In this document: positions 5,585 through 35,623 of the stretch, one piece after another
How positions within the stretch are numbered: position 1 is the stretch's first letter
Layout: each line of letters opens with the position of its first letter
Source: a virus
IMG/VR virus record: IMGVR_UViG_3300044646_002092
Location: 1-64,000 of that record
DNA: 64,000 nt
Reading direction: 5' to 3' (one strand)
Program-made: the position numbers and the translations under genes
The notes under the pieces: generated by a model
What the model saw: the letters and a program-made list of their open reading frames with translations, nothing else
Database searches by the model: none
What the model was told of the DNA's origin: nothing

Positions 5585-6300
5585 GGTTGGTTGTCTTGGT
5601 AAATGATTGTGAAAAAAGCTGTTTTGCAAGTGCCTGATTTTACTATAGACCATCCTGCATCAAGTAAAGTCTCTTTGATATATGGAGTACTTTCTTGTAA
5701 TGGTAGCAAATATGTTTTTAATTCTGGGATAGTAATTTTCCTTGCTTTTTTACGAAGCAGTAAACATTCTGCCTTGGTAAGTATTAACGTTTTTTTATCA
5801 ATTTCGTTCAACTGTTCTAGCTGTACATTCCTCCAGTTGTGAGATTTGATAATAGCCTGAGCCATTGTAGAGTGGTGAATTTCTTTATAACCAAAGTGTT
5901 GTGCAAGATAAAGATGAAGTCGGTCATAACCTTCAGCAACTTGCCTCTTTCCTGTCTGCCCTTTGTAAGATATCTTTAAGTTGTCATCTTCTGAGTCTAT
6001 GAATACTTCAAAGCCAGTTAGTAGTTCAGGGCAGTTGGCAAATTTACCTGCTAGAGCCGCTACACCTATGACTTTGGTGCTTTCTACACTTTGTCTGAGT
6101 TGACGTAACTCTAGGGCAATACTTTCGAGGTTATCCCCCATTTTTACGACCATCAACTGAGAGAATGTGGACATCTTAGCTATTTGCCCCTCGTTTTCCC
6201 AATCACTTAATGTCTTTTGAACTAAAGCTCTATCGGCTGGTATTTTTTCAATAGCGGCAATCAGTTCAGCATCTACTTCGTATACTTTATCTATTTCCAC
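5581..6300 (-). CDS. Putative DNA-binding protein with C-terminal winged helix; paralog of 20417..21064
   Basis: Shared blocks PELLTGF..D.E...K.SYKGQ / PEYLDGF.ID.ESRRVKYCGQ and ITIPEL...LLDAGW / VTIPEI...LDKLGW. Confidence 0.6.
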   Translation of the reverse strand: MEIDKVYEVDAELIAAIEKIPADRALVQKTLSDWENEGQIAKMSTFSQLMVVKMGDNLESIALELRQLRQSVESTKVIGVAALAGKFANCPELLTGFEVFIDSEDDNLKISYKGQTGKRQVAEGYDRLHLYLAQHFGYKEIHHSTMAQAIIKSHNWRNVQLEQLNEIDKKTLILTKAECLLLRKKARKITIPELKTYLLPLQESTPYIKETLLDAGWSIVKSGTCKTAFFTIIYQDNQP

Positions 6301-6315
6301 AGTTATATTGTAATT

Positions 6316-6499
6316 CTGTACTTATTTATCATAACATAGTTAAAATCCTGTACCTCAGTCTGTACTTTTTTTGTGTTAGCTGCTCCAACCTCAATATAAA
6401 CGTCAAATTACCTTGTACCTAACTTTGTAATTTCCCTCTTTCTGTTTGTACTTTTGGTCAAATAATGCCCTCAAACGTCGAGGATTCGTTAAGGTACAA
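6316..6499. repeat. Six dispersed YTGTACYT copies upstream of 5581..6300
   Basis: Copies at 6316, 6348, 6360, 6413 and 6446, plus an inverted copy at 6493. They bracket the minus-strand extended -10 TGtTATGAT (6328-6336). Confidence 0.6.
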
Positions 6500-6750
6500 G
6501 ATTTTCTTTTATTACTATTATTATTGGAGACACTTTTGAATTAGCCATGCGGCGTATGAGCTAGTACCTTAGTATCTACCTCACTTAGCATAGGAATCTC
6601 TGTGTTTTGCCATAGTATCTAGGTAAATTCACGCTATGTATGAAAGTTCGAGTACTATCGAACAATGCTGTGATGGCGCAAACTCGTTGCTATATGTTAT
6701 ATCGATGAGTGGGAATATTGATGAGCGTCGATATATCGAGAGAGTGGAAG

Positions 6751-6769
6751 CAAAATGATAATCATTCTC
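6751..6769. promoter_or_regulatory. Fur box-like operator
   Basis: CAAAATGATAATCATTCTC matches the canonical GATAATGATAATCATTATC at 16/19 positions. Confidence 0.55.
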
Positions 6770-6892
6770 ATTCTCGTTTAACTCTCGTATATACGAACAT
6801 CACATGAGCATACCCCATACTTCCCTCACACAAATATCATATATCCCTTATCTATCTCTAAGTCAAATATCATCCTTTTCATTATAAATTCA

Positions 6893-6935
6893 GTATCATA
6901 CGATACAGATTAAGCTACACTCTATACTGTATAAT
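6893..6935 (+). promoter_or_regulatory. NtcA-type activated promoter candidate
   Basis: GTATCATACGATAC (GTA-N8-TAC, palindromic GTATC/GATAC) followed by 23 nt and then TATAAT (6930-6935). Confidence 0.45.
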
Positions 6936-7319
6936 GCTTTCAGCGCATAAATAAAGCGCTCAGACAACTTTCACCAAGGAGAAATAAAAAAGAACCTCAC
7001 TTACCCTCACATAACGAACATGAAAATAATATAATGGGAGATTAAAAATATCCGATTGAAAATAGCCCCAAATTTTGAAGAGATAAGCCTGACCCATAGG
7101 ATTAAGCATACAAATACAGCTAAGCAGACTAACAAAGTCTTAGAGATGCCAAAAACTAGCAGTGTAGAGAGATATTAAGTTAACCGCTAATAGGAATATC
7201 GCGCACGATACTATATGCTAATACGAAAATTAGAGGAGCAAAAAGAATTTTCAAACTTTTTTATTCCTACAGTGTATAGCTTACAGCCACTTTTAAACGT
7301 TTACATACTACAAGGGGGC

Positions 7320-7348
7320 TTTACATTCTAGAGATAACCTGATAGATT
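7320..7348 (+). promoter_or_regulatory. Sigma70-type early promoter
   Basis: TTTACA-17 nt-TAGATT. Confidence 0.6.
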
Positions 7349-11204: not shown

Positions 11205-14200
11205 ATGAATAACACAGGTCTTGAATTGCGGTTAAGTGATAAGAAAGCATATCTTATCCTAGATGGTTCTAACATCCCCTCTACACTCGATGAGAATGAA
11301 ATCGAGTATCTTAACTCGCTACCACACGATACAGCCCTTTGCGAACTACTAGAGAGCTATCTGTGCAATGGTTGGCAAACTGTCAATGTAGCTTTGTTTG
11401 GTGGTTTGGTGCTAGAGAGTCCAGATGGCAAATACTACGCTGATACACAATACGCTGTACTTAGTGCTGTAGATGCTTTGTTGAAAGGTGAGCAGTACAA
11501 TTTCTATGAGGTCGATTAACAATGCCTGATATACAATTTTACAAAAATGCCGTAGTCTTTAACGGTGTTAACTGGCAACTTGATTTTCGGTTACTTGCTT
11601 TCAGTTGGGTTTGGGACTTTCATAGAAAGAGTAAATCAAGTCTTGAGATTTTTACCCCTCTTGTATCCATCTATTTTTGGAAAGATAGTCATGATTGAAG
11701 GAACTATTTTTGGCTTCCTTGTAGGCTGTGTCATATCTGGTTTTGCTTGTTTCCATCTAGGTTATGAGCAACGCATTTACGATACTCGCGAAATTACCGC
11801 CGCTAAAGATGCCAAACTAGAAGCGTATGAAAGTATGCTTGGCATCATGAAAGTGAAAAAAGAACTTCACTAAATCGCTTGACTTTTTCTATCGTTTCGT
11901 GCGAAGCTTTTATTTCAATCAATCAATTAAAAACATGACAGACACAGAATTTTCAAGACGTACATCTAACCGTAACAGCACTGAGATGATACCACTGCCT
12001 AAATTTGACGCACCTACTCAAATCAGCTATTCTCTTGTCAACAACAATGCAGACTGGGAAAATTTACGCTTAAAGCTTATTGAACTAAGCACAGCATCTA
12101 TTCCTTTCACTCTCGAAAAAGAGGATGGTATAAAGCGTATTCGATTGACCTACTAACATCCCTAAAGAGAGGGGCTACCCTTAATTCCCCTCCCTTTTCT
12201 GCCCAACTGTTTTGGAGAAAAATTATGACTACTTATGACACTTCAGTTAAATTTGCCAAGCTCGGTTTTGATGATTATGTACAATTTGAAAATCGCAAAG
12301 TTCAGCTAACTCACTACGACACTGACCACAAAACCCCTCTTTTTCTGCAATTCGTAGGTGATATCGCGCAACCTGCTTACTGTATCGGTTTTAAGAATGC
12401 TATCGACTGGCTGAAAACTGGTGTTCTCGAAAACCCTAAAATCAAGGTCAAGACCAGCAAAGCCAAACTTGACGGTAAGCACTTGATTGTAAAGACTTGG
12501 AAAGCTGCTAATGATGGCACAGTCTTCTCTCTGAACTATGACGGTAAAGATTTGGAAGTATGGGAGTTTGAGAAAGTAATATTTCCTGACCTCTCAGACT
12601 TATCACGAAGCAGCCTTAATCTGTTTTCTCCTTGGTTCTTAAATGTCTTCACGCCGTCAAAGAATAAATTTCGCTCTACTTTCAATGTAGAACACTGGAA
12701 TGTCGCAAAACACATTGTAGAACGTATCGCAATCGTGCGTGAGGTATTGAAAAATGAATCTCGCTAAACTCACCCATAGCTACCACATCTCATTGGCAGA
12801 AAAAGAAGCTACCAAGACACGCAACCAAGCGAACCTCACTCGCATAGCTTCGCACCTTCAACAAGTCTCTAATCGTCAAATCTTGCACTCTCTAGGAGAA
12901 TACTTAAATGTCTGCCAAAAAACAAACTTGGGTGAAACGTCACCATACTTGTAAAGGACACAGCACCACAGATATTGTCAGATATTCCAATCCTGACAAG
13001 CTTCTAACCCAACTATTCGACAGTGATGTACCTGACGGCTTTGCTGTCTCACTAAACACACCAGAACGCATTGAACTTACTTTCGATGATGAACCAGACT
13101 TTTATTTTGAACCTATAGGGAGAATTAGGCGATGAAAGCAATCCAAGTTTCTCGGTCTTCTGTCACTGGAAAACTTCGCGCTAAAGCTGAAGGTGTTCCC
13201 GCAATCATTCGCAGCAAAGAAACTCTTGATGACAACAATCCTGCATTAGATATTGCAACTCGACTCTGTGCTGAATACAATTGGCTTCAAGATGGAAAAT
13301 TTCGCCTTGAAGAAGGTGGGCTCCCTAATGGCGATACTGTGTTTGTGTTCGTCAAGAACGAAGTTGAGCCTAAGCCTGACATTCGCCGAGATTTGCGCCT
13401 ACTTCTCGAAAAATACGATGCTCGGCTTGTTGCAATGGATTACACTTATCCTGATTTTGAATCTATCCAAATCAGTATTAGAACTGTAAAAGACTATAAA
13501 CCGATACTAGAGTTCGGTACAGATGAGACAATTATCGATTCTACTCATTATCTTTTATCTGAGGAAGTTATCGCTAATGAAAACTAAAAATCTCTCGCGT
13601 GAACAACTCCTCAATTCTTTTCTGTCACGCGCTAGCGACCTCTCTTCCAGTGGCTTGCAAATCGATTCTGAAGGCTATCTCTACGCTTCTGGTGAAATGA
13701 TAGCAGCATGGCAAGGAGAAGTGCTGTTTATCGATTGTGGCTCTGACAAGGTGTGCAATCGTAAAGCCGCTAACGACCTCAAAGAGTTGGCAGAAAAGGA
13801 AGGTGTCGTGTATGTTCCTTACAACGTACACTCCTATGTAATCTCACACGAATTTCAGTTTGCTGCAAGAATGGTGTCGTATACCATCTGGGCTACTCCT
13901 AAAGATGTAAATCCCATAAACATCTTCAAACAAGCTCAAAAAGTACTTGACAAAGCCATAGAGAAGGCAATAAGCTATGGAAGTATTCAGGAATTGATTG
14001 ATTCAACACAACACATTGCAACGTTGTTTGGTTTCACATTTGATTCAACGTCTTACGACATTAAGAGACAACAACACATCGAAACAGCAAACGCAGCGAA
14101 AGCAGCACGCATCGAATACCACAAAAAAGAGCTAGAGAGGTTACTTGCATCATGAAATTAATTCAAATTGGAAAAGAAACCTTCATTCCTTCCGACGCTA

Positions 14201-27821: not shown

Positions 27822-28000
27822 GTCAATACTTCTTTTGAGGTTGAAAGACAATTATCTTTCTTAAATTGATTAGGTCATTGAGATTCTACTTGGCACAAAC
27901 GTACAGATGCTTCTCCAGTCTGTACCTCTTTAAATCTGAGTTGTCAGATGTTGTGTAATGGCAAGACATCTTAGTAGAATTGACCGAGGAGACTTACAAC
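27822..28000 (+). ncRNA. omegaRNA scaffold of IsrB element 1
   Basis: Starts GTCAAT pairing with ATTGAT. Blocks CATTGAGA, ATGCTTCTCCAGT, CAAGACATCTTA and TTGACCGAGGAGACTT are shared with 60348-60545. Confidence 0.75.
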
Positions 28001-28025
28001 TAGCAATAGGATTATATCCAACTAA

Positions 28026-29117
28026 ATGATTAGAGTTCCAGTATTAGACATCGACGGTAATCCGACTATGCCAACTAAAGCCTCAAGAGCTAGACGTTGG
28101 CTACGCGACGGTAAAGCCAAAGTAGTCCACAATGACCTTGGAGTATTCCAAATTCAACTTCTCCAAGAAGCTTCTGGAAATGTTCAACAAGATATTGTTG
28201 TCGGGATTGACCAAGGTAAGCTGTATACGGGGATGGCTATACAGAGTAGTAAAAGTACTTTGTTGATGCTGCATCTTGAGTTACCCCTTCCAGTAGTAGG
28301 TTTTCGTATGAAACAACGTGCAATGCTTCGTAAAACTAGAAGAAGTAGGAGAATAAACAAACGACTAAAATTCAAGTTACGAAATCATAGGCAAAAAAGG
28401 TTCAACAATCCAGCTAGAAAAGAGGGGGTTATTCCCCCATCTATAAACTCTAATAAACAGTTTGAGAGGAGGGTAGTAATTGAATTAAGTAAATTATTTC
28501 CTCTTAGTCATTGTGTTTTTGAATTAGTTAAAGCTAAAGGTAGTAAAAGTTTCAGTCATGTAATGATAGGTCAACGCCAACAAGAAAAATGGTTAAACTC
28601 TATTTTACCAACTATAACTATAGAAGGATGGAAGACCTCTATACTTCGAGATAAATTAGGCTTAGTTAAAAACAAAGCTAACAAATCTATTCAAGAACCT
28701 GCTACTCATGCGATTGACGGTGTAGCCCTTGCTTGTCATCACTTTATTAAGTATGTTGAAGACAAAGTTAATCAGTGTGCTGATTGGTTTGGTGAGGTCA
28801 AAGTTACTAAATCTCAATTTGTTATTGCACGACGACCTAGTTATTCGCGCAGACAGTTATATCAGCTTAACCCTAAAAAACGTGGTAAATATAAGTTGCA
28901 CGGAGGGTCAAGTACACTCAATAATTTCAGAAAGGGTGACATAGTTCTATATACATCCCAAACTAAAACAATTTTGGGATATTGTTCAGGGGCAACATTA
29001 AAAAATAGACTTATATCTATTTCTGATGTAAATTGGCGTGTTATTGGTAAATTTGCTGTCACTAGATGTAAGTTAATATCTCGGTCTTGCGGAATATTGA
29101 TAAAAGTAACTAACTGA
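28026..29117 (+). mobile_element. isrB: IsrB (RRXRR/PLMP + split RuvC, no HNH), IS200/IS605 OMEGA element 1
   Basis: NPTMPT (PLMP), GIDQG (RuvC-I), Arg-rich bridge helix RKTRRSRR, FELV (RuvC-II), THAIDG (RuvC-III); 363 aa. Confidence 0.8.
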
Positions 29118-29170: not shown

Positions 29171-30214
29171 ATGACTATTGAAATTCCAGACAATTATTAC
29201 TCTTTGAAAGCCAAGATAGATTATCTTCGCGAACGGAAACCTGTAATCGATTTCCCAAAGAAAGTTGCAGTCCCGCACAAACCTATTGATTTCAGTAACC
29301 ATCTTACAGTGGCTGATGCAAGAAAATATGCAGCCTCTCTGCTAGACTATGCAGAAAAAAGAGAAGTCTATGAAAAAGAATATGAAGTTGCTAAAGCGGC
29401 AAACGAAGCTGCACGACCCAAAGCAGCAGCTATAGAAGCGCAGATTGAAGAACTCATTCAAGAAGATGTTGGCTTAACCAAACTCGGATTGTCAGAAAAG
29501 AAGGTTGCAAAGCTCTGGCAAAAAGCTTGGGACGATGCTAACAGCGAAGATGAAGCTATCAGTAATTTGCGCGAACTTGTAGAACTTTTCGAGGATTAAT
29601 ATGACAATTGAATTTCGCAATACTGGTGTCATTTGCATGGTGCATACAGCCAAAGAAGATGAACTTCATTCCATTGATTTAGGAAATTATTTTGTCAAGT
29701 CTGATACGCAAGAGCAAGTACTGATTACCAGTGAGAGCCTTGCCAATCAATATGGACATCTGGTTAAAGTACCAATTTATACTATGAAAGACAAAAATGA
29801 GTACCACCTCCCAATCTGAACCAAAATTTCCACCTGACATCTCTTTTGGTAAATTTGACCAAATCATAGCATTTGAGGCTTATATCATCGATGGTGACAC
29901 TATTCGAGATATGTTGAGTGCGATGGACTGCAAAACCGCATCACAAGCCTACCGACGCGCTAAGCTACTTGAAGTTTTAGAAGGAGATACCAATGAACTT
30001 CGCTAATTTTGCATTGGGTGTGAGAGATATTGTATCAGAGATGACACTATCTGAAGCCGCTAGCTTAGAAGTTGAATTTAGACTGTTTGACCAACTATTA
30101 CCTATTGGCGAGATTCGTGTTGACAGAATCAATAGTAAGGTGTATATCAATGCCTATCCAAGCAAATTAAATACCTCTCCAGATAGACGTACAGAAAAAG
30201 AAGTTGAGTTATAG
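29171..30214 (+). other. Hypothetical CDSs 29171..29599, 29601..29819, 29797..30006, 29993..30214
   Basis: Packed co-oriented ORFs. Confidence 0.65.
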
Positions 30215-30222
30215 TAATAAAT

Positions 30223-30980
30223 GTGAGGGAGATATAGTGCAGATGGAAACTCTTGCTCAATCATTGAATAATGATTGATGGCGCAACATAAACGTTAAGA
30301 CGCACTCCCACAATAATGTTTAGTAAGTCGGAGGTGTATCTTCAAACAAACTAAACAACTGGATGGCGGTGAATAGGCAATAAACCGCAGGAACACGTAG
30401 AGGTCATCGGCGTTTTCGCTCATTAACTCCTCATAACGAGCTACTAATGTCCAGCACTATTCCAATCTTATGTGGCTGAGGACGGTTGAAAGCTGAACCC
30501 GAATAAGTAAGGGCATGACTGACTAATTGACACCCCTGAAGTCAGATATTCGATAGGGTGGTCATCAAAGGTTCAAATCCTTTCATAAGCGTTTCGGGGA
30601 ATATCGTAAATTCCTTATACACGAAAGCAAAGAGGTTGTGGTCTTAGGATTTCCCTCTTTGCAATCTGGATATTCGAGGAATAGTCAATACTCGATTTGT
30701 GGGTTCGTTCCTGCTAACCCCAGCCGTAACTTGAGCCTAAGTAATCAAGCCCTGCGAAGTTGGGTCTAGGACAGGGCTATCCAGCCATATCATCGTTTCG
30801 GAGGGTATCGTAAACCCTCTGCACCTCACCTTAGTATAAGCTCTTGCTCCGTCTTAGGATTAGCTGGGATTTGATGCCCAAAGCGAGTTGCCTTGTCAGT
30901 ATGGTCAATCTTATTAAGGTGTACAGCACCTTGCGAGATAATTTCAAACTGAAGCGCCCCTTGAACTTAGGTTAGGGGTA
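30223..30980 (+). ncRNA. Cluster of structured non-coding RNA elements (~750 nt)
   Basis: No long ORF; many perfect stems, a tRNA-like unit, two cloverleaves and a duplicated covarying hairpin; ends in a GCCCC/GGGGT hairpin at 30956-30985. Confidence 0.7.
30466..30591 (+). ncRNA. tRNA-like RNA with a replaced/extended anticodon arm (not a decoding tRNA)
   Basis: Acceptor CTTATG/CATAAG, D-arm GCTGAGGACGGTTGAAAGC, perfect T-arm AAAGG-TTCAAAT-CCTTT; a ~65 nt nested stem replaces the anticodon loop. Confidence 0.6.
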
Positions 30981-31001
30981 TTTTCATATCTAAAATAATC
31001 A

Positions 31002-31571
31002 ATGAAAAATATTGCAATAGGAAACATCCCGAAACATAAATATGTCTGGGTAGACACCAATTTCACTCATAAGCAATTCATAGGTTATATTCCTGCTGTT
31101 TGGTTTGCACTCAATAGCGTTGCTGGTCGAAGTTGGGGTTTGCATGTTATGTTGGAGTGCGGCGCAGTTTTTCGGAACTTACCACCCCACGCAATACTTT
31201 TTGAAGACCCGTTATCATTTACCGCTAACCTTTGGGACATTAGACAAGCTCAGCGTTGGGATTGCTACAGCCAAAATTGGAGTGCAATCGAATATAGGTA
31301 TCTAGCCAATTTACGATGCAAGGTAGCTATTGACCCTGAAATAGCCTTTCTAGGAACTTACCTCTTTTCTGTCTGCCCTCTGGATGACGGGTTCACAGAT
31401 TATCCTGACCAAGCCAAAGAGTTCATATTCATCCAACTTGATAACGGAAGATTAACAATTCAACCAACAAATTACGTTTTGTTCAAGGAAAACAGTTTTA
31501 CAACCAATGATGAACTATTATTCCCTAAAGACTTAAAAGTAAGCGACTTAATTTACTCATCGGAGAAGTAG
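31002..31571 (+). CDS. Conserved-type phage protein of unknown function
   Basis: 189 aa with GRSWGLHVMLECGAVFRNLPPHA and AQRWDCYS motifs. Confidence 0.7.
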   Translation: MKNIAIGNIPKHKYVWVDTNFTHKQFIGYIPAVWFALNSVAGRSWGLHVMLECGAVFRNLPPHAILFEDPLSFTANLWDIRQAQRWDCYSQNWSAIEYRYLANLRCKVAIDPEIAFLGTYLFSVCPLDDGFTDYPDQAKEFIFIQLDNGRLTIQPTNYVLFKENSFTTNDELLFPKDLKVSDLIYSSEK

Positions 31572-33510: not shown

Positions 33511-34130
33511 TGTTGAAAAATTTTGAAGTTGAGTGGAATAATATAGAGGATTTATCTAAATTACATAAAATTATAAAAGCGAGAATTTGCTCTTTAAAAT
33601 CCGATGGAGCTACTTTTGCTAGTAAGGAAGAAAAAAGGAAAATGATTCTAGATTGTTGTTTTTCAATTTATGAAGCAAATCTAGACCATATATTTGTAAA
33701 AGACAAAGATGCGGCAAGTAATTATTATATCTACGCACATTGCAACCCACTACAGGAATTAGATGCTATTTGCAAAGCTAAACCTGCTTTTGCGGCTACA
33801 TTAGGCTTAAATTTTGTTCCTTTCTATGTTGGAAAAGGTACGGGAGATAGAGCTTATAAACTAGAGCGTAATGAGACTTATAGGAAAGTCATGCAATTAC
33901 TAAATGCTAGAAATTTAAAACCAGACATAAAAATAGTCTCTAATAACTTACAAGAAGCTAAAGCATTAGAATTGGAAGCTAAATTAATAGATATTTTTGG
34001 TCTACAAATTTACGGTGGTTGGTTGACAAATTTAGATGAAGGTCACGACTCTAAGTTAAGAAGGCAGAGGTATGCTAAAGAGTTTAGTGTATTAAATCAA
34101 AAACGTTTTCAATTGTTCTCGGATAATTAA
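33510..34130 (+). CDS. GIY-YIG (LEM-3-like) endonuclease, probably homing
   Basis: YYIYAH...FYVGKGTGDRA...EAKALELEAKLIDIFG...LTN. Confidence 0.75.
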   Translation: MLKNFEVEWNNIEDLSKLHKIIKARICSLKSDGATFASKEEKRKMILDCCFSIYEANLDHIFVKDKDAASNYYIYAHCNPLQELDAICKAKPAFAATLGLNFVPFYVGKGTGDRAYKLERNETYRKVMQLLNARNLKPDIKIVSNNLQEAKALELEAKLIDIFGLQIYGGWLTNLDEGHDSKLRRQRYAKEFSVLNQKRFQLFSDN

Positions 34131-34149
34131 TTTCTACACCACAATACGC

Positions 34150-34185
34150 AAAAAGGAGATGCACATAATACATCTCCTTTTCTTT
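34150..34185. terminator. Bidirectional intrinsic terminator
   Basis: AAAAAGGAGATG-loop-CATCTCCTTTT, followed by further T residues. Confidence 0.75.
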
Positions 34186-34426
34186 ACGCTACTACCAAGC
34201 TAGATTTGCGGGTAAAAGCTACAATTGAGTTTTTGCCATTTGTTTTCTTGTCCCATAGTCCTTACTCATAAAGTAAAAACAGTGATAACTCTTACTAAAA
34301 CGTCGATACCTTTATATGCCCTTGTAGTGGGGCTTGATAGTAGTTAATGGACATAGCATTAATCGAAAATGCGTCCGCCTTAGTTCAACGAAATCTTTCA
34401 AGACATATTAATATTAACATAACACT

Positions 34427-35623
34427 ATGAAAAAAGCTTGCGGTTTCCGCTTCCAAGGTCACTACGTCTACCGTCAATATTTTGAAGAGCATGGCAGATA
34501 CAAAATCATGGTGTGGGTCGCCTCTAATCCTCCAGAAGAAGAATTGTGCGCTGATGTTGCCTTCTGCGGTGACTCTCACAACGAATGTATGGACAAACTC
34601 AAGCAATGGCTTGAAATCAATAACGATTGGGTAAACAAAACAGATGCCTAACACTAAATTTGAACTACCCGAAGACTTGAAAGAGATTACAGATTTCGGG
34701 TTTCAAGTCTTCCCAGAAAACGTTGTAGTTTATCCTCCTGATGTGTTGGTATTAACTTTAAATCACTACCCTTTAGAGGCTGTAGCTAAGTTATTTTCCT
34801 CTTTACAGACCACACAAATAAGATACTACGACATCACTTTTGACGGTGCATATCAAACTAAACTGAATCCAGATGGAACAATTACTTGCAGCCCTTACTG
34901 CACGGAAATTAACGGAAAGGAAATAGGCAGAACTCCTGTGAAACTAAAAATTCTGAAAGAGTTTAAATCAATACAATGGAAAGAAACAAATGGCAACACT
35001 TAAAAACCTCAAACCAGACCAAATTCTTTACAAGGTCAGAAAAGAAAAGGCTGGTCGTACAACAATGACTCGTCAAGTACTCGATACCATTCGTATTATC
35101 AGTGTAGACCTCGAAAATGAGAAGGTGGTGGCTAGTTATCGTGGCAGGAAGGGAAACTATCGCGATTGGCAACTCAAGTCTTGGCGAGTTAAAGAACCTC
35201 AAGTAAAGAGTCGTGATATACTCGGAAACCCTCGATACTAATCCTCCTCACGATAGATGACCTGCCCCGACCATCACGCTATTATTTATAAGCAATCAAG
35301 CAAATAACTAAAAACACATGAATCCTGATACCGCAGTTGCTTACGAACCCGAAGTTGCACAACAAGTATTGGCAGCAATCGAAGAAGTTGAGCCAGTTAC
35401 CGAAGAGCCAGAATTTATCTCGAACGAAGACTATCGTGAATTGTTGGCGCTTGCTATCAATGATGCTGAAGTTTGGGTTTCTCAAGCTGAAAGTCTCATC
35501 AACAAGATTGACAATGGCGAAAAAATCAAAGGGACGAAACTAAACGGCGCTGTTCGTAATGGTCGTCTCGAAATTCTTCGCTCTTCACTAACCGACGTAA
35601 AGACTGCCAAAGTAAGCGGCTAA
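34427..35623 (+). other. Hypothetical CDSs 34427..34651, 34644..35003, 34990..35241, 35318..35623
   Basis: Packed co-oriented ORFs. Confidence 0.65.

Follow-up and report, generated by a model that had tools for sequence, protein, structure and literature searches.

Paralogous copies of a small hairpin module within a ~730-nt non-coding RNA of a Pseudanabaena phage clade: a possible docking site for a shared partner

Two short hairpin elements in a phage genome are paralogous copies of one small RNA module, and both are internal, optional parts of a single ~730-nt RNA of a small freshwater Pseudanabaena phage clade. At a probability of roughly 45%, we propose that the module is a sequence-specific docking site for a shared trans-acting partner, most likely a protein. 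The DNA analysed, called the window below, is a stretch of 64,000 nt from an IMG/VR virus record of 116 kb, whose relatives include the Pseudanabaena phages PA-SR01 and Pam2. The features of the locus are listed here by window position.

30192-30215, + strand: conserved start motif CAGAAAAAGAAGTTGAGTTATAGT, which heads 8 of 8 related loci and overlaps the stop codon of the upstream ORF
30229-30959, + strand: non-coding RNA as assembled in RNA-library contigs, ~730 nt, with no conserved ORF
30229-30358, + strand: 5' domain M1, ~90% identical to PA-SR01; the loci L039 and L040 are alike by eye
30359-30455, + strand: domain X1, with closing stem CUGGAU/..UCCAG followed by C, and an inner hairpin loop GAAUAGGCAAUA
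30466-30591, + strand: tRNA-like unit T1, with a 6-bp acceptor stem, D arm, long insertion and T arm
30590-30616, + strand: hairpin module copy 1, at site A downstream of X1; flank CGUUUCGG, stem 30596-30602/30610-30616, loop AUCGUAA at 30603-30609
30627-30662, + strand: hairpin H1, with 9-bp stem GCAAAGAGG/CCUCUUUGC and a loop that holds GUCUUAGGAUU (30641-30651)
30666-30785, + strand: domain X2, with 7-bp closing stem CUGGAUA/UAUCCAG followed by C, a 5-bp hairpin with loop GAAUAGUCAAUA, and inner loop GCCUAAGUAA at 30735-30744
30794-30820, + strand: hairpin module copy 2, at site B after X2; flank CGUUUCGG, stem 30800-30806/30814-30820, loop AUCGUAA at 30807-30813
30827-30950, + strand: conserved 3' block, with the second GUCUUAGGAUU at 30851-30861; identity to PA-SR01 and Pam2 is 81-88%
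30957-30986, + strand: terminator-like hairpin CCCCU..AGGGG followed by a U run; Pam2 has the compensatory stem GCCUC/GAGGC

A preliminary description of this stretch, made from the sequence, had reported a duplicated module with an invariant loop, and we found both copies where it had placed them. At the DNA level, copy 1 reads CGTTTCGG-GGAA-TATCGTAAA-TTCC from 30590 and copy 2 reads CGTTTCGG-AGGG-TATCGTAAA-CCCT from 30794. A scan with the 21-nt module pattern, allowing up to 2 mismatches, returned these 2 sites in the 64-kb window and none in 100 shuffles. The description had also noted that the stem is swapped with pairing preserved; this held, and the helix proved to be 7 bp long rather than four pairs. 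In copy 1, GGGGAAU (30596-30602) pairs with AUUCCUU (30610-30616) around the 7-nt loop, and in copy 2, GGAGGGU (30800-30806) pairs with ACCCUCU (30814-30820) around the same loop, AUCGUAA. The last two G of the flank CGUUUCGG open the stem in both copies, and the flank is otherwise single-stranded. Between the two copies, three pairs are swapped on both sides, one G.U becomes G-C and three are unchanged. The sequence GTCTTAGGATT, said to follow each copy, is present in exact form at 30641 downstream of copy 1 and at 30851 downstream of copy 2; at up to 1 mismatch its 2 sites compare with 1.4 expected by chance, so it is a weak repeat on its own.

We built a covariance model, R1, from the two window copies and two orthologues that were found by reading the related loci. 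The orthologue in PA-SR01 (L001 3248-3272) has the stem GGGAGAU/AUCUCCU and the loop ACCGUAA, with 2 further compensatory swaps. The orthologue in L039, an uncultured relative, lies at 6009-6033 and has the stem AGAGGGU/ACCCUCC, which is nearly that of copy 2. In consensus, the four instances have CGUUUYRG as a single strand, then a 7-bp stem that is free in sequence and closes on the invariant heptaloop AYCGUAA. Over the four sequences, 27 of 28 stem cells are paired and 4 of the 7 pairs have changed on both sides, while controls in which the partner strand was shifted by 1-3 columns gave only 32-71% pairing. With four instances the covariation is thin, and 12 of 500 shuffles reached the observed score. 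Three of the four instances carry G.U pairs at the stem base, which would read A.C on the opposite strand and so indicate the + strand as the one that folds. The comparison supports the view that the module is under selection as folded RNA. Selection on RNA structure had been claimed from the covariation between the two copies; compensatory changes within and between genomes, G.U pairs possible on the + strand only and RNA contigs carrying both copies all bear that claim out.

Run over nine related phage genomes, R1 gave scores of 46-52 bits to four sites and no more, each of them within the syntenic locus: the two window copies, PA-SR01 (MT234670, 120,932-120,964) and L039 (6007-6038). The next best match reached at most 16 bits. 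In a sample of 151 cyanobacterial genomes the maximum was 24 bits, which is chance level, and no credible instance was found. The exact pattern CGTTTYGG-N4-TAYCGTAAA occurred in 24 IMG/VR stretches; the matches outside this phage group have unpaired "stems" and were rejected as chance. A metagenome search with the conserved upstream protein gave no further loci, and a scan for the GGAGGUG hairpin of M1 gave no new family members. DNA pattern scans for the X2 loop added 2 true loci, both metagenomic (L075 and L086), and none in cellular genomes. The module is real and structurally selected, and it is confined to a single locus in a single phage clade. It is absent from 5 of the 8 related loci (L040, L008, L035, L037 and Pam2), so it is accessory and cannot be essential to the RNA.

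The two hairpins sit in a 787-nt ORF-free gap (30215-31001) between + strand genes. This gap is syntenic in eight distinct loci, where it spans ~480 nt to ~1.5 kb, and more in L039, which contains an insertion sequence; it always opens with the motif CAGAAAA..TTATAGT and closes with a hairpin and a U run. The paper on PA-SR01 lists three tRNAs elsewhere in the genome and reports nothing at this locus (PMC10286775). Six RNA libraries hold most of the stretch, and we mapped four, one from each of four studies. Each of the four yielded one contig that was 100% identical to the window, had no loose ends and bridged both hairpins. The contigs start at 30229-30232 and end at 30957-30959 in three libraries and at 31030 in one, whereas the DNA contigs (the window and L005-L007) continue where the RNA contigs end. 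This coincidence across studies is a weak hint that the ends are real RNA ends; the contigs themselves carry no information on strand, level or processing. No RNA contig covered 28500-30018 or 31104-35000, which we do not read as silence or as a relative level.

The contigs begin 14-17 nt downstream of a -10-like TATAGT at 30210-30215 within the start motif, which is probably a promoter to judge from its sequence and position. The G.U pairs and the terminator point to the + strand for the RNA. Folding energy of the whole gap was unremarkable and gave no decision on strand (z of -1.6 for the + strand and -3.0 for the - strand). Two small ORFs, at 30638-30769 and 30844-30975, were considered as genes and rejected, as the changes within them are compensatory in helices and not synonymous. 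The three contigs that end at 30957-30959 stop at the 5' foot of the terminator and not past its U run, so trimming or cleavage may produce the mature 3' end.

The RNA family comprises ~10 genomes and is strongly mosaic. In the window, the order is start, M1, X1, T1, hairpin 1, H1, X2, hairpin 2, 3' block and terminator. PA-SR01 has M1, X1, hairpin, X2, domain Y, 3' block, terminator, a tRNA-Leu-like remnant and a second terminator, and L039 has M1, X2, hairpin, an IsrB-type insertion sequence, Y, terminator and tRNA-like units. L040 carries M1, X1, X2 and Y together with tRNA-like units and is without the hairpin module; the short form typified by L008 carries Y and is without X1, T1 and both hairpin modules. 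Of all the loci, only the window has no Y, and copy 2 occupies its place. The 3' part of relatives holds tRNA genes and tRNA-Leu-like units (L040 10441-10704, L002 3307-3402 and L037 3270-3560); these have canonical D and T arms and 38-56-nt insertions and are called only by relaxed ARAGORN.

X1 and X2 are tRNA-sized, and both contain a hairpin with the loop RAAUAG(G/U)CAAUA. Under the loop GAAUAGGCAAUA, the X1 hairpin has three different paired stems in five loci. All 8 loci retain the closing stem of X2, in which one change is compensatory, and the 5-bp hairpin of X2 has four different, fully paired stems across loci. T1 folds as a cloverleaf with a canonical T arm (AAAGG-UUCAAAU-CCUUU, 30567-30583) and no clear anticodon arm. 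It was called only by ARAGORN in relaxed mode (introns allowed, threshold lowered), as a 126-nt unit with a 47-nt insertion; default ARAGORN and the Rfam tRNA model (RF00005) made no call. The loop of H1 holds CUUAGG (within 30641-30651), complementary to CCUAAG in the inner loop of X2 (30738-30743). H1 and the X2 loop GCCUAAGUAA occur together in the window, L008 and L035/L038 and are both absent from the other loci, a co-occurrence that suggests a kissing (loop-loop) contact between H1 and X2.

The hairpin of M1, GGAGGUG..UCUUCAA, is also found in the related loci. It holds an invariant Shine-Dalgarno-like GGAGGUG (30330-30336 in the window), which lies in the same place in all related loci, with no start codon after it and no conserved reading frame; L008 has a perfect UAAGGAGGUGA. 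In the window, CACCUC just past hairpin 2 (30823-30828) could pair with GGAGGUG.

The module is found at two orthologous sites. Site A, after X1, is used by window copy 1, where T1 has been inserted before the module, and by PA-SR01. Site B, after X2, is used by window copy 2 and by L039, whose stems are nearly the same. All four instances begin 0-8 nt past an acceptor-like closing stem plus one base, and the preceding domain ends in CCAGC. The earlier observation that the module is repeated after each unit is thus upheld. The further statement that each copy follows a cloverleaf-type unit is partly right: copy 1 comes after the tRNA-like unit (a call of relaxed ARAGORN only), and copy 2 comes after a tRNA-sized domain with a 7-bp closing stem and no T-loop.

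We favour a docking site for a shared trans-acting partner because the two copies agree fully in flank and loop and covary at every variable position of the stem, and because the stems have diverged, two copies lie in one molecule and the module is dispensable in relatives. In such a mechanism, flank and loop would be read by sequence and the stem would act as a structural scaffold. The same flank and loop would be offered twice, once per X domain, to one trans partner, and because their stems differ, the copies would not mispair with each other in the same molecule. As most relatives make the RNA without the module, its contribution would be an accessory one. Protein binding, as proposed in the preliminary description, is a plausible candidate role. 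Among the ORFs scanned within ~5 kb, we recognised no RNA-binding protein or domain, and the phage record showed no Ro/TROVE protein and no CCA-adding enzyme.

Instead of a protein, the partner could be RNA: loop and flank might dock on the same RNA or on another copy of it and so help to form a particle that is compact or multimeric. Conserved-loop hairpins abound in this large, modular RNA, the H1-X2 pair, whose two loops are found only together, is a likely loop-loop contact elsewhere in it, and kissing loops and A-minor contacts are what GOLLD and ROOL use to assemble (bioRxiv 10.1101/2024.12.08.627333). A complement scan for the loop and flank, however, gave wobble-rich, non-specific matches, and none was both conserved and limited to module-bearing genomes. 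The element GUCUUAGGAUU does not co-occur with the module; it is present in several module-less loci and is therefore not the module's RNA partner. Moreover, two identical loops would need two receptors. We regard an RNA contact as rather unlikely.

The position of the module resembles that of a tRNA 3' trailer, since all four instances lie 0-8 nt past an acceptor-like stem plus one base, and true tRNA genes occur in the same locus of relatives. RNase E, RNase Z or a phage nuclease might accordingly cut at or beside the U-rich strand and free the tRNA-shaped unit, with the hairpin protecting the new end. In phage T4, stable RNAs are co-processed with tRNAs. The RNA contigs of all four studies nevertheless cross both modules, although partial cleavage could stay hidden in them, and the X domains of relatives that are without the module keep the same closing stem. 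A processing signal is in our judgement unlikely.

The hairpin pair could also be the bait in a larger device. The phage RNA as a whole might be a decoy of a new kind, in which tRNA-shaped bodies, anticodon-arm-like loops and an exposed Shine-Dalgarno-like sequence would, while the phage infects, capture a host translation or tRNA-surveillance factor; the 30S subunit, a tRNA-modifying enzyme and an anticodon nuclease are examples. We think this quite unlikely. A narrower proposal concerns the hairpin itself, whose stem and loop A-U-CGU-A-A would imitate a Thr (CGU) anticodon arm and, as bait or decoy, attract a nuclease, modification enzyme or synthetase that is directed at anticodons. Phages do counter anticodon nucleases. 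Like a tRNA anticodon arm or the E. coli thrS operator hairpins, the module has a regular stem and a 7-nt loop with U2, CGU in the middle and AA at the end; U at position 2, a purine in sixth and A in seventh place are seen in 3 of 4 instances, and the module always adjoins an acceptor-like domain. Unlike those arms, its stem is 7 bp and not 5, the first loop base is A and not a pyrimidine, PA-SR01 has C where U33 is near-universal, and neither placement nor connectivity is that of a tRNA. A loop of 7 nt will always resemble one anticodon loop or another, which makes the match a weak one, and this imitation is improbable.

Two further explanations have little in their favour. One is a DNA-level or selfish element that does nothing in the RNA, either a small mobile insertion or a hairpin used in recombination or by a transposase. 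It would fit the L039 module, which by comparison with L040 and L008 resembles a clean insertion of 33 nt between CAGCAACAA and CUCCAAGG, and would fit a locus that is a recombination mosaic with an IsrB-type insertion sequence inside it in L039. It is nonetheless very unlikely: all copies in the nine genomes belong to this RNA gene, G.U pairing at the base of the stem is kept, the L039 module (6007-6038) lies outside the HEARO match (6051-6230), and loop and flank are invariant across paralogues with fully diverged stems. The other, a self-cleaving ribozyme repeated after each unit, is extremely unlikely, even though small ribozymes are common in phage non-coding regions and the repeat combines a conserved core and a freely varying stem: a search of 29900-31300 at E up to 10 matched none of the ribozyme families, conservation covers only ~17 nt and one helix, and the RNA contigs of four studies bridge both copies uninterrupted (partial cleavage could stay hidden), so that self-cleavage by the module, the self-processing suggested in the preliminary description, is unlikely.

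We compared the RNA and its module with known RNAs. In a cmscan of the whole window against Rfam, no family matched the RNA at the gathering threshold, nor did any in the related loci. At E up to 10, the sole match in 29900-31300 was an unrelated sRNA (E 2.8) in the next gene. The families without a match include GOLLD (RF01998), ROOL (RF03087), tRNA, tmRNA (RF00023, RF01851 and RF04321) and ribozymes (hammerhead, twister, pistol, hatchet and HDV-like). GOLLD and ROOL are phage-encoded, lie near tRNA islands, sometimes with tRNAs in a linker, and are abundant, and their function is not known (bioRxiv 10.1101/2024.12.08.627333). The window RNA shares much with them: all are phage or prophage RNAs of 500-800 nt, separately transcribed, multi-domain, beside or enclosing tRNA or tRNA-like genes and readily found in RNA libraries. 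In contrast, the window RNA has an unrelated domain set (X domains, T1 and the hairpin module) and forms a tiny mosaic family. As it fails their models, it is not a GOLLD or ROOL member, though it occupies the same genomic niche.

At the level of the module, a similar layout is that of the phage lambda nut and rrn antiterminators (boxA plus boxB), which combine a conserved single-stranded box with a hairpin of conserved loop and free stem. Such units are repeated along one transcription unit, and rrn operons have another of them behind the spacer tRNAs. The likeness is one of layout only, as the module has no similarity to the boxA consensus or to the boxB pentaloop, and cyanobacteria are not known to have Rho, which takes away the usual rationale for an antiterminator. 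Phage T4 species 1 and 2 (RNA C and D) are stable phage RNAs of unknown function transcribed with tRNA genes; at ~120-140 nt they are much shorter, and they are not expected to be related in sequence.

Two other relationships were tried and rejected. An IS200/IS605 end hairpin or omega RNA (HEARO, RF02033) does not account for the module, which lies outside both HEARO matches (L039 6051-6230 and window 27822-27997) and has no further copies in the nine genomes. A tmRNA relation of X2 was dismissed since the frame lacks conservation, a stop interrupts it at codon 3 in L039, its changes are not synonymous and the resume-codon context of cyanobacterial tmRNA differs. The frame concerned lies after AAUAGUC (window 30680-30730, L001 3294-3370 and L037 2900-2975) and can be read as NT(E/R)(S/F)VG(A/S)F(M/L)L..; in PA-SR01 and L037 it runs on to ..KLYAVAA, which recalls tmRNA tags. 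This tag-like frame could be the decayed remains of a tmRNA, or the likeness could be coincidental.

GOLLD, ROOL and other large structured RNAs of phages occur widely and assemble into remarkable particles, and this locus provides a further, unrelated example with a cultivable system at hand, PA-SR01 and its Pseudanabaena host. Since the RNA is modular, the relatives offer natural "deletion mutants". The module is small and sharply bounded, its copy number per locus is 0, 1 or 2, and its loop and flank do not vary, which makes it a practical handle for pull-downs and mutagenesis aimed at the binding partners of such RNAs.

Other elements lie near the RNA gene. An IsrB/IscB-like gene (window 28026-29117, + strand; Pfam RRXRR, E 1e-42) is preceded by a sub-threshold HEARO/omega-RNA match on the + strand at 27822-27997 (45 bits, E 1.5e-7). 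The two make up a guide-RNA nuclease element of the IS200/IS605 type (27822-29117), located ~1.1 kb upstream of the non-coding RNA. In L039, the same kind of element (6051-7330, with HEARO at 6051-6230 and an RRXRR ORF at 6255-7330) lies inside the non-coding RNA gene. It starts directly after CUCCAAGGUG, ~15 nt past the hairpin module, and CCAAGGUG is repeated at its far end (7354). Because this element is inserted inside the RNA gene, the promoter of the RNA may drive the omega RNA.

A circularly permuted tmRNA lies downstream on the - strand, opposite to all neighbouring genes. The Rfam match covers window 34184-34400 at 51.6 bits (cut-off 47), ARAGORN places the gene at 34093-34437 with the tag GKNSIVAFTRKSSLVVA, and a counterpart is present in L040 at 13618-13893.
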